A DNA stretch of 6,285 nucleotides from a virus (Duplodnaviria; Heunggongvirae; Uroviricota; Caudoviricetes). Made by a program: the position numbers and the translations under genes. Positions 1-6,285 of this stretch are shown here, in pieces. Under the pieces are notes generated by a model. That model was given only the letters and a program-made list of their open reading frames with translations. It was not told the origin of the DNA and ran no database searches. The DNA is taken from positions 1-6,285 of IMG/VR virus record IMGVR_UViG_2778261122_000006; one strand, written 5' to 3'. Every line of letters begins with the position of its first letter. The stretch's first letter is position 1.

Positions 1-369
1 ATGTCAAACATCAAAAAATACATCATTGATTACGACTGGAAAGCATCAATAGAAATTGAAATCGACCATGACGTAATGACAGAGGAAAAACTTCACCAGA
101 TTAATAATTTCTGGTCAGACTCTGAATACCGACTCAATAAACACGGCTCTGTATTAAATGCTGTATTAATCATGCTGGCGCAACATGCTCTGCTTATAGC
201 AATTTCAAGCGACTTAAATGCATATGGTGTTGTGTGTGAGTTCGACTGGAATGATGGAAATGGTCAGGAAGGATGGCCTCCAATGGATGGTAGTGAAGGA
301 ATAAGAATTACCGATATCGATACATCAGGAATATTTGATTCAGATGATATGACTATCAAGGCCGCCTGA
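1..369 (+). CDS. ea10: Ea10-like early-left operon protein (122 aa)
   Basis: ORF-track ORF, ATG 1-3, stop TGA 367-369. Protein MSNIKKYIIDYDWK... matches my recollection of lambda Ea10 (122 aa) and lies directly upstream of cIII as in lambda. Confidence 0.8.
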   Translation: MSNIKKYIIDYDWKASIEIEIDHDVMTEEKLHQINNFWSDSEYRLNKHGSVLNAVLIMLAQHALLIAISSDLNAYGVVCEFDWNDGNGQEGWPPMDGSEGIRITDIDTSGIFDSDDMTIKAA

Positions 370-441
370 GCGCGGCGTTACCGCATACCAATTACGCTTC
401 ACTCGAGGCGTTTTTCGTTATGTATAAATAAGGAGCACACC

Positions 442-606
442 ATGCAATATGCCATTGCAGGGTGGCCTGTTGCTGGCTGCCCTTCCGAATCTTTACTTGA
501 ACGAATCACCCGTAAATTACGTGACGGATGGAAACGCCTTATCGACATACTTAATCAGCCAGGAGTCCCAAAAAATGGATCAAACAATTATGGCTATCCA
601 GACTAA
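442..606 (+). CDS. cIII: CIII, lysogeny-promoting inhibitor of FtsH (HflB) protease (54 aa)
   Basis: Not in the ORF track (below length cutoff). ATG 442-444 preceded by AAGGAG at 430-435. My translation: [54 protein letters not shown], stop TAA 604-606; recognisable as lambda CIII. Confidence 0.9.
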   Translation: MQYAIAGWPVAGCPSESLLERITRKLRDGWKRLIDILNQPGVPKNGSNNYGYPD

Positions 607-718
607 ATTCACTATCGCCACTTTTATTGGCGATGAAAAGATGTTTCGTGAGGCCGTCGACGCTTATAAAAAATGGATATTAATACTGAAACTGAGATCA
701 AGCAAAAGCATTCACTAA
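575..718 (+). CDS. kil: Kil, host cell-division inhibitor (47 aa)
   Basis: ATG 575-577 preceded by AGGAG at 561-565. Product [47 protein letters not shown] is the C-terminal 47 aa of ORF-track ORF 449..718, whose upstream extension overlaps cIII and is not believed. Overlaps the cIII 3' end in another frame, as in lambda. Confidence 0.88.
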
Positions 719-793
719 CCCCCTTTCCTGTTTTCCTAATCAGCCTGGCATTTCGCGGGCGATATTTTCACAGCCATTTTCAGGAGTTCAGCC

Positions 794-1090
794 ATGAACG
801 CTTATTACATTCAGGATCGTCTTGAGGCTCAGAGCTGGGCGCGTCACTACCAGCAGATCGCCCGTGAAGAGAAAGAGGCAGAACTGGCAGACGACATGGA
901 AAAAGGCCTGCCCCAGCACCTGTTTGAATCGCTATGCATCGATCATTTGCAACGCCACGGGGCCAGCAAAAAAGCCATTACCCGTGCGTTTGATGACGAT
1001 GTTGAGTTTCAGGAGCGCATGGCAGAACACATCCGGTACATGGTTGAAACTATTGCCCGCCACCAGGTTGATATTGATTCAGAGGTATAA
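794..1090 (+). CDS. gam: Gam (GamS form), RecBCD nuclease inhibitor (98 aa)
   Basis: ORF-track [24 protein letters not shown]..., ATG 794 preceded by CAGGAG at 781-786. Recognised as lambda Gam short form. The upstream GamL extension is in a different frame here (see findings). Confidence 0.93.
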
Positions 1091-1095
1091 AACGG

Positions 1096-1881
1096 ATGAG
1101 TACAGCACTCGCAACGCTGGCAGGGAAGCTGGCTGAACGTGTCGGCATGGATTCTGTCGACCCACAGGAACTGATCACCACTCTTCGCCAGACGGCATTT
1201 AAAGGTGATGCCAGCGATGCGCAGTTCATCGCATTGTTGATCGTCGCCAACCAGTACGGCCTTAATCCGTGGACGAAAGAAATTTACGCCTTCCCTGATA
1301 AGCAGAACGGCATCGTTCCGGTGGTGGGCGTTGATGGCTGGTCCCGCATCATCAATGAAAACCAGCAGTTTGATGGTATGGACTTTGAGCAGGACAATGA
1401 ATCCTGCACATGCCGGATTTACCGCAAGGACCGCAATCATCCGATCTGCGTTACCGAGTGGATGGATGAATGCCGCCGCGAACCATTCAAAACCCGCGAA
1501 GGCAGAGAAATCACGGGGCCGTGGCAGTCGCATCCCAAACGGATGTTACGGCATAAAGCCATGATTCAGTGTGCCCGTCTGGCCTTCGGATTTGCTGGTA
1601 TCTATGACAAGGATGAAGCCGAGCGCATTGTCGAAAATACCGCATACACCGCAGAACGTCAGCCGGAACGCGACATCACTCCGGTTAACGATGAAACCAT
1701 GCAGGAGATTAACACTCTGCTGATTGCCCTGGACAAAACATGGGATGACGACTTATTGCCGCTCTGTTCCCAGATATTTCGCCGCGACATTCGCGCATCG
1801 TCAGAACTGACACAGGCCGAAGCAGTGAAAGCTCTTGGATTCCTGAAACAGAAAGCCACTGAGCAGAAGGTGGCAGCATGA
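1096..1881 (+). CDS. bet: Bet (Red-beta) single-strand annealing recombinase (261 aa)
   Basis: ORF-track [41 protein letters not shown]..., 261 aa; recognised as lambda Red-beta. Stop overlaps the exo start (ATGA). Confidence 0.97.
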
Positions 1882-2558
1882 CACCGGACATTATCCTGCA
1901 GCGTACCGGGATCGACGTGAGAGCTGTCGAACAGGGGGATGATGCATGGCACAAATTACGGCTCGGCGTCATCACCGCTTCAGAAGTTCACAACGTGATA
2001 GCAAAGCCCCGCTCAGGAAAGAAGTGGCCTGACATGAAAATGTCCTACTTCCACACCCTGCTGGCTGAGGTTTGCACCGGTGTGGCCCCGGAAGTTAATG
2101 CTAAGGCGCTGGCATGGGGAAAACAGTACGAGAACGACGCCAGAACCCTGTTTGAATTCACTTCCGGCGTGAATGTTACTGAATCCCCGATCATCTATCG
2201 CGACGAAAGTATGCGCACCGCCTGCTCTCCCGATGGTTTATGCAGTGACGGCAATGGCCTTGAGCTGAAATGCCCGTTTACCTCCCGGGATTTCATGAAG
2301 TTCCGGCTCGGTGGTTTCGAGGCCATAAAGTCGGCTTACATGGCCCAGGTGCAGTACAGCATGTGGGTGACACGAAAAGATGCCTGGTACTTTGCCAACT
2401 ATGACCCGCGTATGAAGCGTGAAGGACTGCATTATGTCGTGGTTGAGCGGGATGAAAAGTACATGGCGAGTTTTGACGAGATGGTGCCGGAGTTCATCGA
2501 AAAAATGGACGAGGCACTGGCTGAAATTGGTTTTGTATTTGGGGAGCAATGGCGATGA
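1878..2558 (+). CDS. exo: Exo (Red-alpha) 5'-3' dsDNA exonuclease (226 aa)
   Basis: ORF-track [50 protein letters not shown]..., 226 aa; recognised as lambda exonuclease. Start overlaps the bet stop by 4 nt. Confidence 0.97.
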
Positions 2559-2737
2559 AGCATCCTCACGATAATATCCGGGTAGGCGCGATCACTTTCG
2601 TCTACTCCGTTACAAAGCGAGGCTGGGTATTTCCCGGCCTTTCTGTTATCCGAAATCCCCTGAAAGCACAGCGGCTGGCTGAGGAGATAAATAATAAACG
2701 GGGAGCTGTATGCACAAAGCATCTCCCGTTGAGTTAA
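2555..2737 (+). CDS. Small early-left hypothetical protein, lambda orf60a-like (60 aa)
   Basis: ORF-track ORF 2549..2737 ([21 protein letters not shown]...). The third codon, ATG 2555-2557, has GGGGAG (2541-2546) at about 8-nt spacing and gives exactly 60 aa, so I place the start at 2555. Overlaps the exo stop. Confidence 0.7.
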
Positions 2738-2901
2738 GAACGAGTATCGAGATGGCACATAGCCTCGCTCAAATTGGAGTCAGGTTTGTGCCAATTCCAG
2801 TAGAAACAGACGAAGAATTTCATACGTTAGCCGCATCCCTTTCACAAAAGCTGGAAATGATGGTGGCGAAAGCAGAAGCAGATGAGAGAGACCAGGTATG
2901 A
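2710..2901 (+). CDS. Small early-left hypothetical protein, lambda orf63-like (63 aa)
   Basis: ORF-track [66 protein letters not shown], 63 aa, GGGAG at 2701-2705. Overlaps the 3' end of the preceding ORF by 28 nt in another frame. Confidence 0.7.
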   Translation: MHKASPVELRTSIEMAHSLAQIGVRFVPIPVETDEEFHTLAASLSQKLEMMVAKAEADERDQV

Positions 2902-2977
2902 CAACCACTGAATGCATTTTTCTGGCAGCGGGCTTCATATTCTGTGTGCTTATGCTTGCCGACATGGGACTTGTTCA

Positions 2978-3193
2978 ATGACACCTCAGCAAGAAAACGC
3001 CCTTCGCAGTATTGCCCGTCAGGCTAATTCTGAAATCAAAAAAGCCAGACAGCAGTTTCCGGATAAAAACGTCGATGACATTTGCCGTAGCGTACTGAAG
3101 AAGCACCGCGAAACGGTAACGCTGATGGGATTCACACCGACTCACTTAAGTCTGGCAATTGGCATGTTAAACGGCGTTTTTAAGGAACGGTGA
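2978..3193 (+). CDS. Hypothetical protein (71 aa)
   Basis: ORF-track ORF 2912..3193. The internal ATG at 2978 (MTPQQENALRSIARQANSEIKKARQQFPDK...) is my preferred start because the N-terminal 22 codons from 2912 have no RBS and read as non-protein-like (MHFSGSGLHILCAYACRHGTCS). Function unknown; start uncertain. Confidence 0.55.
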   Translation: MTPQQENALRSIARQANSEIKKARQQFPDKNVDDICRSVLKKHRETVTLMGFTPTHLSLAIGMLNGVFKER

Positions 3194-3213
3194 ACATGAA
3201 AAGCAAAATCATC

Positions 3214-3236
3214 AGGGAGCTACAGGCTCCTTTTTT
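3214..3236 (+). terminator. Candidate intrinsic terminator after the 71-aa ORF
   Basis: GGAGC (3216-3220), loop TACAG, GCTCC (3226-3230), then TTTTTT (3231-3236). Short GC stem plus T-run, 23 nt after the stop at 3193. Confidence 0.45.
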
Positions 3237-3291
3237 ATTATTCGCATTCACCCTCAAGCGTATTAACCAACAATTCAGGGATTAATGAAAG

Positions 3292-3513
3292 ATGGCAGAC
3301 ATCATTGATTCAGCATCAGAAATTGAAGAATTACAGCGCAACACAGCAATAAAAATGCGCCGCCTGAACCACCAGGCTGTATCTACCACTCATTGTTGTG
3401 AGTGTGGCGATCCGATAGATGAACGAAGACGACTGGCCGTTCAGGGTTGTCGGACTTGTGCCAGTTGCCAGCAAGATCTGGAGCTTATCAGTAAACAGAG
3501 AGGTTCGAAGTGA
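3292..3513 (+). CDS. TraR/DksA-family C4 zinc-finger protein (73 aa), likely RNA-polymerase secondary-channel regulator
   Basis: ORF-track ORF MADIIDSASEIEELQRNTAIKMRRLNHQAVSTTHCCECGDPIDERRRLAVQGCRTCASCQQDLELISKQRGSK. Cys35-x2-Cys38-x17-Cys56-x2-Cys59 matches the DksA/TraR C4 spacing; size is typical of phage and plasmid TraR-like proteins. Confidence 0.75.
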   Translation: MADIIDSASEIEELQRNTAIKMRRLNHQAVSTTHCCECGDPIDERRRLAVQGCRTCASCQQDLELISKQRGSK

Positions 3514-3665
3514 GCGAAATTAACTAGAAGCCAAAGATAAAATCATCGCTGAGCAGGAGAAAATCGCTAACGGAGAAAAGACAGTAAGTCAGTATATGAA
3601 AACCGCATGATATCATCAGATAAAAATCGGTCGTAAAGCGAAATATTAATACCAGAATAAACGAG

Positions 3666-3689
3666 TCGAGGTAAATTATATTACCTCGA
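3666..3689 (-). terminator. Perfect 9-bp inverted repeat between convergent genes; candidate terminator for the reverse-strand membrane gene
   Basis: TCGAGGTAA (3666-3674), loop ATTATA, TTACCTCGA (3681-3689). Lies 35 nt beyond the reverse-strand stop at 3724-3726; the reverse-strand RNA downstream is moderately U-rich (CUCGUUUAUUCUGG). No T-run on the + strand. Confidence 0.4.
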
Positions 3690-3723
3690 TAAATTAACTA
3701 AAACTTGCCCGCTATATACTATC

Positions 3724-4302
3724 TCATTCAGTATCATCACGCGCGGTCTGTGCATATGTCACTACCGCACCTAATGTATTAATTTTCTTTTCAACATAGA
3801 TAATATTATCGTACTCATAATTGCCATACGGATAGCAAATGCGAATATTCTCATGTAGATCGGGGTCATCCACCTCAGCTCCAGAACAACTTTTTGAACT
3901 ACCGGAAGTATACCGATACGGTGCAACATAAGACGATGTCTCTCCAGGCAAAAAATAAGTTAGTGTTGTAAGGGGTATAATCAGAAAAAATCCAGAAAAT
4001 ATGCATATCCCTGCATAAACCTTAAGGTATGCTGACAGACTCTTCCAGCCGCTTTGTTTTACTATCCCCTTCTTAACCCAAAACAGAGATAACAGAAAAG
4101 CTATTCCCATGCTAAACAGAATGTAATAGTGGGATATACTCTGATTAAGAAACGTGACCCTGTAGATATCTGCCCGCCACCAGAAGAAAAGGAAAATAAA
4201 GATCAGCCCTGAAACTGTCATGCAAATCAAATAAGGATACGAATCTTTTTTCATGTTTAGCGCCCATAAAATTTTTCCTGCCCGGACAAATTTACCATCC
4301 AT
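3724..4302 (-). CDS. AT-rich accessory (moron) integral membrane protein, three predicted TM helices plus acidic C-terminal domain; function unknown
   Basis: ORF-track reverse ORF 3724..4347, whose first codon is GTG. ATG candidates are at 4302 (MDGKFVRAGK...), 4254 (MKKDSYPY...) and 4221; none has a strong SD, so the start is uncertain. Hydrophobic segments LICMTVSGLIFIFLFFWW, YYILFSMGIAFLLSLFWV and VYAGICIFSGFFLIIPLTTLTYFL, with Lys-rich loops. GC is about one-third by eye, versus over 50 percent in flanking genes. Confidence 0.7.
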   Translation of the reverse strand: MDGKFVRAGKILWALNMKKDSYPYLICMTVSGLIFIFLFFWWRADIYRVTFLNQSISHYYILFSMGIAFLLSLFWVKKGIVKQSGWKSLSAYLKVYAGICIFSGFFLIIPLTTLTYFLPGETSSYVAPYRYTSGSSKSCSGAEVDDPDLHENIRICYPYGNYEYDNIIYVEKKINTLGAVVTYAQTARDDTE

Positions 4303-4528
4303 TTTTTGCGCAGAAAATAGCTCATTACTTACTGCACAATAATACACAAAATTGCGTAAATTTTTTGCATGGATTTTAGCTCTTTCAGCCGACGTTTAAG
4401 GGGTAAAGAGCATTTCCTAAAAGCAACTGACCAACCCAACAGAATGGGCTACCGCTTACGTTGAGAGCAAAAAAGTGTATAGCAGCAATGAACAGCATCC
4501 TCGCACTGACGGGGATTTCTTTTATCTG

Positions 4529-4553
4529 AGCTCGCTACGGCGAGTTTTGTTTT
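4529..4553 (+). terminator. Candidate intrinsic terminator or attenuator immediately upstream of the 114-aa gene
   Basis: CTCGC (4531-4535), loop TACG, GCGAG (4540-4544), then TTTTGTTTTA (4545-4554). The T-run is on the + strand only and runs into the GGAGA RBS of the ORF starting at 4567. Confidence 0.4.
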
Positions 4554-4566
4554 ATGGAGACAAGAA

Positions 4567-4911
4567 ATGTCAGATTTGGCTATGAAGGTTTTGAAATGGC
4601 AATCAACTGGCGATGTCGGCATCAGTAGCGCAACTCTTGCCTCAATCGCATGTGGCCTGAAAAAGAATATCTATGGTCATCACTTCGGCGCTCCCCATGA
4701 CGCAGCAGACTTTCGGCGATGCGTTGCACTTGTTGAGCAGATTCCAGAAATCAGAGATTCATTCGACAAGGTTGCAAAGCGCGTTCCGGCATTCAAAGGA
4801 ATCCTCAACGAATGGGATTCACTCGTTGCTCTGTTGAAGTCTGAAATGAAGACGTACGGGAACAAAGCACCAGAGACTTACAGAAGAATCAGCGAGCTAC
4901 GCAAGGACTAA
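4567..4911 (+). CDS. Hypothetical protein (114 aa), accessory gene upstream of xis
   Basis: ORF-track ORF MSDLAMKVLKWQSTGDVGISSATLASIACGLKKNIYGHHFGAPHDAADFRRC..., GGAGA (4556-4560) 6 nt before ATG 4567, stop TAA 4909-4911. No TM segments and no family I can name. Occupies the position taken by ea8.5 in lambda but is not that protein by length. Confidence 0.75.
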   Translation: MSDLAMKVLKWQSTGDVGISSATLASIACGLKKNIYGHHFGAPHDAADFRRCVALVEQIPEIRDSFDKVAKRVPAFKGILNEWDSLVALLKSEMKTYGNKAPETYRRISELRKD

Positions 4912-4967
4912 CCCGCCTCACACTCGATGAGGCCTGTTCATTTCTCAAGATATCCAGACCTACCATC

Positions 4968-4991
4968 GCCGCATCAATGCGGCTTTTTCTT
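4968..4991 (+). terminator. Intrinsic terminator upstream of xis
   Basis: Perfect 6-bp stem GCCGCA (4968-4973), loop TCAA, TGCGGC (4978-4983), then TTTTTCTT (4984-4991). Textbook hairpin plus T-run. Confidence 0.6.
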
Positions 4992-5003
4992 GCGTGTAAT
5001 TGC
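4990..5003 (+). promoter_or_regulatory. CII-binding site TTGC-N6-TTGC of a pI-type (int) promoter
   Basis: TTGC (4990-4993), GTGTAA, TTGC (5000-5003): the direct-repeat motif recognised by lambda CII, positioned over the xis start region as at lambda pI. The -10 and transcription start could not be confidently assigned by eye. Confidence 0.65.
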
Positions 5004-5015
5004 GGAGACTTTGCG

Positions 5016-5234
5016 ATGTACTTGACACTTCAGGAGTGGAACGCACGCCAGCGACGCCCAAGAAGCCTTGAAACAGTTCGTCGATGGGTACGCGAGTGCA
5101 GGATATTCCCTCCTCCGGTTAAGGATGGAAGAGAGTATCTGTTCCACGAATCAGCGGTAAAGGTTGACTTAAATCGACCAGTAACAGGTAGCCTTTTGAA
5201 GAGGATCAGAAATGGGAAGAAGGCGAAGTCATGA
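5016..5234 (+). CDS. xis: Excisionase Xis (72 aa)
   Basis: MYLTLQEWNARQRRPRSLETVRRWVRECRIFPPPVKDGREYLFHESAVKVDLNRPVTGSLLKRIRNGKKAKS is recognisable as lambda-type Xis. GGAG (5004-5007) precedes ATG 5016. The ORF-track start at 4977 lies inside the upstream terminator hairpin and is rejected. The 3' end overlaps the int start by 23 nt. Confidence 0.93.
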   Translation: MYLTLQEWNARQRRPRSLETVRRWVRECRIFPPPVKDGREYLFHESAVKVDLNRPVTGSLLKRIRNGKKAKS

Positions 5235-6285
5235 GCGCCGGGATTTACCCCCTAACCTTTATATAAGAAACAATGGATATTACTGCTACAGGGACCCAAG
5301 GACGGGTAAAGAGTTCGGATTAGGCAGAGACAGAAGGATAGCAGTTTCAGAGGCTATTCAGGCCAATATTGAGTTGCTATCTGAGAACAGGCGTGAGTCA
5401 CTGATAGACAGGATTAAAGGCGCTGACGCAATCACTCTTCATGTGTGGCTTGACCGATATGAAACAATTCTCAGCGAGAGGGGCATCAGACCGAAAACTC
5501 TACTCGACTACGCCAGCAAAATCAGGGCAATCCGAAGAAAATTGCCGGACAAACCGCTCACTGACATATCAACGAAAGAGGTGGCTGCAATGCTAAACAC
5601 CTACGTAGCAGAAGGTAAAGCGGCTTCCGCAAAATTAATCAGGTCAACCCTTGTTGACGTTTTTCGTGAGGCAATAGCCGAGGGGCATGTGGCAACGAAT
5701 CCGGTAACAGCAACCCGCACAGCAAAATCAGAAGTAAGGCGTTCAAGACTGACAGCTAATGAATATGTCGCGATTTACCATGCAGCCGAACCGCTCCCAA
5801 TCTGGCTGAGGCTGGCAATGGATTTGGCTGTCGTTACAGGGCAGAGAGTAGGCGATTTATGCAGAATGAAATGGTCAGACATAAACGACAACCATCTTCA
5901 CATTGAGCAGGGTAAAACAGGGGCTAAGCTCGCCATTCCGCTGATGCTAACGATTGACGCGCTCAATATCTCATTGGCTGATACACTACAGAAATGCAGG
6001 GAGGCCAGCGGCAGTGAAACTATAATCGCATCAAAGCATCACGATCCGCTTTCCCCGAAAACAGTATCGAAGTATTTTACAAAGGCGAGAAATGCATCTG
6101 GACTCTCATTTGATGGAGACCCGCCAACATTCCATGAACTGCGTAGCCTGTCAGCGAGGCTATACCGAAACCAGATTGGCGATAAGTTTGCTCAACGTCT
6201 TCTCGGGCATAAATCAGATTCAATGGCGGCGCGGTATAGGGACAGCCGTGGACGGGAATGGGACAAAATTGAAATCGACAAATGA
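5212..6285 (+). CDS. int: Lambda-family tyrosine integrase Int (357 aa)
   Basis: ORF-track ORF MGRRRSHERRDLPPNLYIRNNGYYCYRDPRTGKEFGLGRDRR... with the lambda Int arm-binding N-terminus. Catalytic-motif contexts are present: GQRVGDLC (Arg), HELRSLSARLY (His/Arg), LLGHKSDSMAARYRD (His and the Tyr nucleophile). Stop is the last codon of the window. Confidence 0.97.
   Translation: MGRRRSHERRDLPPNLYIRNNGYYCYRDPRTGKEFGLGRDRRIAVSEAIQANIELLSENRRESLIDRIKGADAITLHVWLDRYETILSERGIRPKTLLDYASKIRAIRRKLPDKPLTDISTKEVAAMLNTYVAEGKAASAKLIRSTLVDVFREAIAEGHVATNPVTATRTAKSEVRRSRLTANEYVAIYHAAEPLPIWLRLAMDLAVVTGQRVGDLCRMKWSDINDNHLHIEQGKTGAKLAIPLMLTIDALNISLADTLQKCREASGSETIIASKHHDPLSPKTVSKYFTKARNASGLSFDGDPPTFHELRSLSARLYRNQIGDKFAQRLLGHKSDSMAARYRDSRGREWDKIEIDK

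Follow-up and report, generated by a model that had tools for sequence, protein, structure and literature searches.

What is a single reverse-strand gene, set in AT-rich DNA, doing in the middle of a phage operon that otherwise reads in one direction, and what might it do for the bacterium that carries the prophage? The locus that raises this question lies in IMG/VR virus record IMGVR_UViG_2778261122_000006, of which positions 1 to 6,285 (6,285 nt; hereafter "the window") were analyzed and found to be the pL arm of a lambdoid genome of the phage 434 type. Between a TraR/DksA-type zinc-finger gene and a gene for a 114-residue protein, the window carries an island of ~1 kb (3514-4566) with one minus-strand gene, here called the membrane gene, which an earlier note on this DNA, made from the letters alone, had taken for a horizontally acquired moron. 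As described below, the island holds a mobile cassette whose single gene encodes a conserved protein with three hydrophobic segments, and we consider it very probable that the island is a moron, that is, an accessory cassette.

The minus-strand gene encodes a 176-residue protein under purifying selection

Open reading frames (ORFs) and annotation bear out the layout that had been described for the window: all of its other recognizable genes lie on the plus strand, and a single gene on the opposite strand (minus ORF 3724..4347) is convergent with the TraR-like gene and divergent from the 114-residue gene. This ORF, the longest on the minus strand of the island, would encode 207 residues from a GTG at 4347. 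We rejected it as the extent of the gene, as its upstream 31 codons are unconserved and its frame is broken in near-identical relatives by a 1-nt indel, located between 4280 and 4281, that shifts the frame among the window, 434 and mEp332. In diverged homologs (166-189 residues; found in Salmonella, Enterobacter, Cedecea and sources farther removed), the first residues correspond almost without exception to MKKDSYPYL (i.e., MKKxSY). Taken together, the conserved MKK start and the upstream indel place the coding sequence (CDS) at 3724-4254, with a length of 176 residues. The same indel, upstream of the ATG at 4254, accounts for the differing annotated lengths (188, 200, 207 and 223 residues) of the near-identical copies in close relatives; counted from the MKKxSY start, the diverged homologs have 173-176 residues. 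The 207-residue ORF is accordingly divided as follows:

3724..4254, minus strand: CDS of the membrane protein, 176 residues (MKKDSYPYL...ARDDTE), from the conserved start, the ratio of nonsynonymous to synonymous substitution rates (dN/dS) and an AlphaFold2 model
4255..4347, minus strand: N-terminal extension of the 207-residue ORF, likely 5' leader and promoter, from an alignment of the window, 434 and mEp332

When the CDS is compared with four diverged homologs by the Nei-Gojobori method, dN/dS is 0.08-0.17, and the membrane protein is therefore under purifying selection. An ORF of 176-207 codons would be expected by chance in DNA of 39% GC with a probability of roughly 1e-6, as estimated from base composition.

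The island is compositionally distinct and occupies a variable slot

GC content is 38.7% in the island and 48.5% in the remaining window, a contrast of ~10 GC points, and the 1053-nt stretch with the lowest GC content (38.5%) begins at 3473, only 41 nt upstream of the island start. The atypical composition claimed in the earlier note is thus real, but the figures given with it, about one-third GC for the island and 50-60% for the rest of the window, were too extreme at the one end and too high at the other. Individual genes in the window range from 38.5% GC (ea10) to 53% (bet, exo), such that ea10 is as AT-rich as the island. GC content at third codon positions (GC3) is 0.38 in the membrane gene, 0.41 in the TraR-like gene and 0.47-0.62 in the other flanking genes, and the intergenic flanks of the membrane gene have 35-41% GC on both sides; because of this GC3 value and the AT-rich noncoding flanks, the low GC content is not merely an effect of membrane-protein composition. 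The membrane gene and its homologs also lie 8-16 GC points below their surroundings in all ten other contexts tested.

The position of the island before xis-int had been proposed to be a variable slot, and comparison with related phages agrees. Among 182 phage records with the TraR-like gene, the island accompanies it in only 5 (three distinct phages) and is absent in ~177. In the remaining records, homology does not reach beyond the TraR-like gene or the first few nucleotides behind it (it stops at 3526/3527 in most of those listed and at ~3471-3523 in others), and many of the listed island-free records in which it ends at 3526/3527 continue into an ea22-type gene. A tblastn search of 50,697 phage records returned homologs in only 3 distinct phages, all of them temperate. 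The island is found in phage 434 (OL657226; 97.8% identity to window positions 3400-4700), where the membrane gene is gp36, "putative membrane protein", and in mEp332 and 2B8 (98%). It is present in 905 of 5426 complete E. coli genomes, and Sp3, a defective lambda-like prophage of O157:H7 strain Sakai, carries the membrane gene as ECs_0804. A scan of species-representative genomes yielded three loci only.

Homologs are also found directly after portal gene Q, in the cos-proximal gpQ-gpA region of P2-like prophages of E. coli (78% identity), Salmonella (70% and 59%) and Enterobacter (57%), and a metagenomic clade of homologs is likewise in the P2-type gpQ-gpA position. This region (the old/tin locus) is an experimentally validated hotspot of anti-phage systems (Rousset et al., 2022; PMC9122126), and of 8 unknown loci picked at random in the corresponding hotspot of P4, 6 gave protection from phages (PMC13586616). 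It should be noted that the hotspot placement applies to the homologs and not to the copy in the window. In several P2 hotspots, the family member is the only cargo; the 81- and 119-residue ORFs that neighbor it in P2 hotspots have no family matches and are not always present. Finally, solitary low-GC copies are found in the chromosomes of Citrobacter (near tus and a histidine kinase gene), Serratia (directly after ptsG) and Cedecea (next to a phage lysis remnant and a fragment of an integrase gene); the solitary copies lie at the following positions:

Locus L019, 8001-8519
Locus L020, 7980-8510
Loci L011 and L022, 6001-6522

The variable slot, the foreign composition, the presence of the same gene with its flanks in P2-like prophages and in chromosomes, and its retention in defective prophages together uphold the proposal of a horizontally acquired moron.

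Three records from this survey deserve separate mention. In a sibling prophage of E. coli O112ab:H8, in which the island is 99.4% identical, a DGQHR-domain gene with a frameshift separates orf60a from the TraR-like gene (locus L004, 3562-4625); this, too, points to an exo-xis segment that accommodates variable and possibly defense-related cargo. The 3.6-kb contig JARKOR010000073.1 (locus L018), labeled as part of a 'Candidatus Nanosynbacter' metagenome-assembled genome, carries bet, exo, TraR and the membrane gene at 98% identity and is evidently mis-binned E. coli lambdoid prophage DNA. In 434 and in Sakai Sp3, genes or fragments of NleC-, NleH- and NleD-type type III effectors are found beyond attP or the tail fibers (L001, 7073-8499; L027, 39623-44294); given these shared effector modules, 434 and Sakai Sp3 are close relatives that have several conversion modules in common.

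The cassette replaces most of ea22

Comparison with the P2-borne copies and with island-free lambdoid phages divides the island into a shared core and its surroundings:

3634..4390, minus strand: core mobile cassette (upstream region, CDS and downstream hairpin), from blastn against loci in P2 contexts
3510..3610, plus strand: decayed ea22-like gene, from the end of homology under an ea22 annotation and from alignment with the Ea22-like pseudogene on the P2 side
4391..4496, no strand assigned: island DNA specific to the lambdoid copies
4497..4566, plus strand: lambdoid backbone and not island, with two hairpins followed by T tracts and the ribosome-binding region common to ORF55 and ORF114, from homology, a terminator scan and folding

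The cassette DNA, read from 4390 to 3634, is 77% identical to the E. coli P2-like copy and extends from 136 nt upstream of the ATG to 90 nt past the stop codon, with a further patch of similarity in the ea22 remnant. At the left edge, homology with lambda and with Stx phages crosses the TraR-like gene (orf73/TraR), enters the GTG start of ea22 and stops at 3526/3527. The GTG overlaps the TraR stop codon, and the reading frame (GTG AGC GAA ATT AAC TAG) consists of five codons (VSEIN) before the TAG; after this stop, an out-of-frame, coiled-coil-like internal fragment, EAKDKIIAEQEKIANGEKTVSQYMKTA with a stop at its end, continues as far as 3610. A longer Ea22-like pseudogene adjoins the membrane gene in the E. 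coli P2-like prophage (locus L028, 4771-5141, minus strand). It reads MSEINYQALRE..., is annotated by PGAP as frameshifted ead/Ea22-like and is convergent with the membrane gene, as in the window. Because the same gene stands in longer form beside the P2-borne copy, we read 3510-3610 as decayed ea22, and this remnant marks the left junction of the insertion. The segment 3527-3723, for which blastn found no source in other phages, is in part explained by it. At the right edge, homology is regained at 4471-4539, at a point that varies among HK022, mEp234 and the Stx phages, and the first of the two backbone hairpins is the t-L4 terminator annotated in record M60848 (Baker et al.). The span of ~3515-4566 given in the earlier note therefore contains a real island, but with narrower true edges, since 3510-3610 is the ea22 remnant and 4497-4566 is backbone.

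The island replaces most of ea22 in the slot. It shares with lambda ea22/ea8.5 the position between orf73/TraR and xis, and the remnant of the ea22 start is kept in the window; in contrast to the membrane gene, ea22 reads in the direction of pL and encodes a cytoplasmic protein without sequence kinship to the membrane protein, and it is displaced here. Since ea22 belongs to the lambdoid backbone, a joint move of the cassette and the ea22 fragment out of a lambdoid phage and into P2 is most likely. As judged from the aligned sequences, they were probably transferred into the P2 hotspot in this direction, in which case the ea22 fragment beside one P2 copy documents an exchange of cargo from a lambdoid to a P2-like phage.

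The protein is predicted to place a small beta domain in the periplasm

The hydropathy profile has three hydrophobic segments, at residues ~6-28, 38-61 and 71-101. Prediction with AlphaFold2 from a 35-sequence alignment yields a confident model (predicted local distance difference test [pLDDT] score 92.3, predicted template modeling [pTM] score 0.79) with three long helices, a short strand in loop 1 (residues 34-36) and a five-strand C-terminal beta domain (residues 102-171). The C-terminal domain is the most conserved part of the protein and holds its only two invariant cysteines, C123 and C140. In loop 1, R32, T34 and L36 are conserved in the closer homologs, and T34 is among the most conserved positions family-wide. 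The N terminus and loop 2 are rich in Lys and Arg, and neither a lipobox nor a signal-peptidase site is found in the protein sequence. The Lys-rich N terminus and loop 2, together with the location of the cysteines in the conserved C-terminal domain, are consistent with an N-in/C-out orientation; the protein would thus probably be inserted into the inner membrane with its N terminus inside and its C terminus outside, and with a disulfide-bonded beta domain in the periplasm. In such a model, the loop-1 strand would be on the same side as the C-terminal domain, and the putative cytoplasmic parts are the first 5 residues and a loop of ~10-18 residues with little conservation.

The family comprises 57 clusters at 50% identity among 1.84 billion representatives, and its members are annotated as hypothetical only. 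There is no match in Pfam-A above the gathering threshold (DUF6057 alone appears, at E = 0.03-0.1, far below the cut-off), none in NCBIfam, no family at E <= 1 among the defense hidden Markov models of PADLOC-DB v2, no match to PDB sequences in a profile search and none in a BFVD fold search; PHROG 1416, function unknown, covers the C-terminal 88 residues.

A 112-residue form of the protein is found in E. coli P2-type contexts (P0117, P0119), on at least 1000 contigs. It consists of the third transmembrane (TM) segment and the beta domain only, starts at the equivalent of V65 and could be an annotation artifact, a frameshifted copy or a real short isoform.

Candidate expression signals

Upstream and downstream of the CDS, the cassette contains the following elements:

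3666..3689, minus strand: terminator-like hairpin with a 9-bp stem, then a weak T tract, from a consensus scan
4289..4297, minus strand: candidate extended -10 element TGgTAAATT, from the invariant columns T124, G125, T127, A128, A129, T131 and T132 of an upstream alignment of lambdoid and P2 contexts
4330..4349, minus strand: tandem 10-bp direct repeat TTGTGTATTA TTGTGCAGTA, consensus TTGTGnAnTA, from the upstream alignment

The hairpin begins 35 nt past the stop codon and has a fold energy of -12.9 kcal/mol (z = -3.9). The motif TGnTAAnTT is invariant in the lambdoid and in all P2 contexts aligned; if it is a -10 element, transcription would by inference start near 4282 on the minus strand, and the site of the 1-nt indel would then be in the leader. 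Upstream of this candidate -10, the tandem repeat is largely kept across contexts, including the P2-borne copies, and could be a binding site for a regulator. The record of phage 434 labels it as a CII consensus site. A CII-dependent promoter is unsupported, in that the spacing of the repeat to any -10 misfits pRE and the repeat is also kept in P2 contexts, which lack CII. The cassette reads against the pL operon, and it would therefore be expected to be expressed from the repressed prophage and to be subject to antisense interference by pL transcripts in lytic growth.

What might the protein do?

The earlier note had named superinfection exclusion, abortive infection and lysogenic conversion as functions common at such loci, and the evidence gathered here favors, without proving, a role at the envelope. 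As a whole, the explanation that we tentatively prefer, while rating it somewhat short of an even chance, is that of a single-gene moron that protects the lysogen at the envelope. According to this proposal, a lambdoid phage would have lost the far end of ea22, and whatever lay behind it in the exo-xis segment, to an autonomous cassette with a single gene. The small beta domain of the product, closed by a disulfide, would be held on the periplasmic side of the inner membrane by three helices and would protect the lysogen by disturbing genome delivery by incoming phages: it could bind the ejection or tape-measure proteins of these phages, or it could occupy a host factor in the inner membrane or periplasm on which they depend. 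The gene is autonomous and confined to temperate elements, its homologs are placed in the P2 hotspot, and conservation is concentrated on the presumed periplasmic face, all of which suggests an envelope-level role that benefits the lysogen. That the protein has an anti-phage role of any kind is nearly an even call, falling just on the negative side; that it acts in superinfection exclusion at the genome-entry step in particular is conceivable but rather unlikely.

Several known proteins provide points of comparison. The classical lambdoid morons bor and lom are AT-rich, independently transcribed, expressed from the prophage and encode envelope proteins. The island is like them in being an AT-rich moron for an envelope protein, and unlike them in that theirs are outer-membrane or lipoprotein factors of the late region, whereas the membrane protein is of the inner-membrane type. 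HK97 gp15 and T4 Imm are small membrane proteins that act at the inner membrane or in the periplasm on genome entry, and gp15 is reportedly, in work by Cumby et al. from 2012 and 2015, a moron-encoded inner-membrane exclusion protein. By description, they resemble the protein studied here in being single small membrane proteins, carried in a moron in the case of the gp15 type; they differ in that the membrane protein has no Pfam match to Imm-type or other exclusion families and no BFVD fold match (gp15 being compared by description), and gp15 and its kin have another number of helices and another genomic slot. P22 SieA, with 162-164 residues and three predicted TM helices, resides in the inner membrane, blocks DNA delivery, is sufficient alone and is encoded by a gene with its own promoter (PMC10461980 / PMC10883804). 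It is similar to the membrane protein in size (~165 versus 176 residues), in its three TM segments and in being encoded by a temperate-phage gene opposite in strand to its neighbors. There is no sequence kinship between the two (hhalign probability 0.2%), and the SieA motif FnRYPnEAnnFNK is absent from the membrane protein; SieA also has a long loop after TM1, a conserved C-terminal motif that is predicted to be cytoplasmic and no C-terminal beta domain, and it is tied to P22-like phages, where its gene lies beside those for the ejection proteins, whereas the membrane gene travels between phage families. As for the cargo of the P2 gpQ-gpA region (old, tin and the systems of Rousset et al., 2022; PMC9122126), homologs of the membrane gene occupy exactly that locus, often as sole cargo, but most of the known cargo is cytoplasmic (nucleases, ATPases, and TIR or reverse transcriptase systems).

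A number of observations weigh against protection from phages at the envelope. Neither by sequence nor by fold is the protein similar to known exclusion or defense proteins in the libraries searched, and literature searches by accession and locus tag returned nothing on function. A simple scan upstream of the gene finds no consensus sigma-70 promoter (no promoter with 9 of 12 matches), and the extended -10 proposal rests on conservation among seven sequences only. In the P2 hotspots, neighbors in the same loci include ParM/StbA-like and YafO genes, so not all cargo there is defense. Known exclusion proteins such as SieA are usually tied to one phage type and its ejection proteins, and the spread of the membrane gene over siphoviruses, myoviruses and bare chromosomes fits a general envelope function equally well.

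Such a general function could be that of a lysogenic-conversion factor unrelated to phages, for instance, in immunity to a periplasm-acting bacteriocin or to a contact-dependent or type VI secretion system (T6SS) effector, in the inhibition of a lytic enzyme, or in stress tolerance or colonization. This alternative, which we consider unlikely, would suit a protein whose conservation is highest in a small domain, probably periplasmic, that contains the two invariant cysteines; the colicin M immunity protein, a membrane-anchored periplasmic domain with a disulfide, has a like architecture. It would suit as well the solitary chromosomal copies without phage genes nearby and the retention of the gene in a defective O157:H7 prophage that also carries lpxR and Nle effectors. 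Against it, the protein resembles no immunity protein or inhibitor in sequence or fold, no toxin gene adjoins the gene in any context examined, and the family recurs in the cos-proximal hotspot of P2, where anti-phage cargo is enriched.

The single-gene autonomy and the hotspot location would also be compatible with an abortive-infection effector that is inert in the membrane until infection, when it depolarizes or permeabilizes the membrane such that the cell dies before the phage completes its cycle, and small multi-pass membrane proteins are indeed common effectors in defense systems (PMC9122126). We nevertheless regard abortive infection as improbable, because the protein has almost no cytoplasmic part with which to sense infection: its cytoplasmic parts are tiny, with no obvious sensor for intracellular infection cues, the conservation is concentrated on the presumed periplasmic side, and there is no conserved partner gene. 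Least credible of all, and very improbable in our estimate, is a part in the lytic growth of the phage itself (for example, in regulating lysis or in aiding injection or assembly). Its three TM helices and small size give the protein a superficial likeness to class I holins, but the gene is oriented against pL and outside the lysis cassette, most close relatives of 434 lack it, it is found in phages of unrelated types and at phage-free chromosomal sites, and its product has no match to a holin or any other Pfam family; an assignment as a class I holin was rejected on these grounds of location in the exo-xis region against pL and lack of a holin family match.

Morons are expected in lambdoid phages, and the existence of another is in itself unsurprising. 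More unusual is that a gene so common (with the frequency in E. coli given above, and with carriers such as the classical phage 434 and Sakai Sp3) is not covered by any protein family, defense database or structure, and that its homologs reside in a P2 hotspot where unknown cargo has repeatedly proved antiviral. In its fullest form, the proposal of envelope-level protection is that this is an unrecognized single-protein exclusion factor with a new periplasmic fold, which acts on genome delivery by several phage families at its periplasmic or inner-membrane stage and is encoded by a ~0.75-kb cassette that shuttles between the lambdoid exo-xis slot, the P2 cos-proximal defense hotspot and bare chromosomal sites and is present in about one-sixth of complete E. 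coli genomes, including O157:H7. We hold this full version to be doubtful; if it is true, the protein would represent a new envelope-level exclusion family and offer a way to learn at which step a periplasmic domain can stop genome entry.

Neighboring genes and other features of the window

The gene order in the window is ea10, cIII, kil, gam, bet, exo, orf60a, orf63, a 93-residue ORF, the TraR/DksA-type zinc-finger gene, the island, the 114-residue gene, xis and int. Features outside the cassette that are referred to in the text, and one ORF that overlaps its right end, are located as follows:

429-487, plus strand: lambda cIII thermoregulator RF01804, a full-length Rfam match (88.5 bits, E = 3e-21)
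3292-3513, plus strand: TraR/DksA-type zinc-finger gene
4567-4911, plus strand: 114-residue gene (ORF114)
4385-4498, minus strand: 56-residue ORF annotated in 434 as gp35, 'putative membrane protein' (4431-4601 in the 434 locus, L001)

The Rfam search for small RNAs in the island matched the cIII thermoregulator alone, which is outside the island, and the svsR small RNA of another lambdoid prophage is located in cI. The gp35 ORF was considered as a partner gene and rejected: a 1-nt deletion between 4429 and 4430 frameshifts the copy in the window, and its 5' half, which falls in 4391..4496, is outside the cassette common to the P2 copies. It is probably not a real gene.

ORF55 of 434 and mEp332 is missing from the window, in which ORF114 is joined directly upstream at ~4550-4570. 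Both mEp332 and Sakai Sp3 have ORF55 and lack ORF114. Either one is thus found together with the island, and we rejected both ORF114 and ORF55 as functional partners of the membrane gene. The ORF55-less junction in the window falls within the ribosome-binding motif TTTTATGGAGA that is common to ORF55 and ORF114, and it is a clean module boundary of the kind typical of lambdoid mosaicism.

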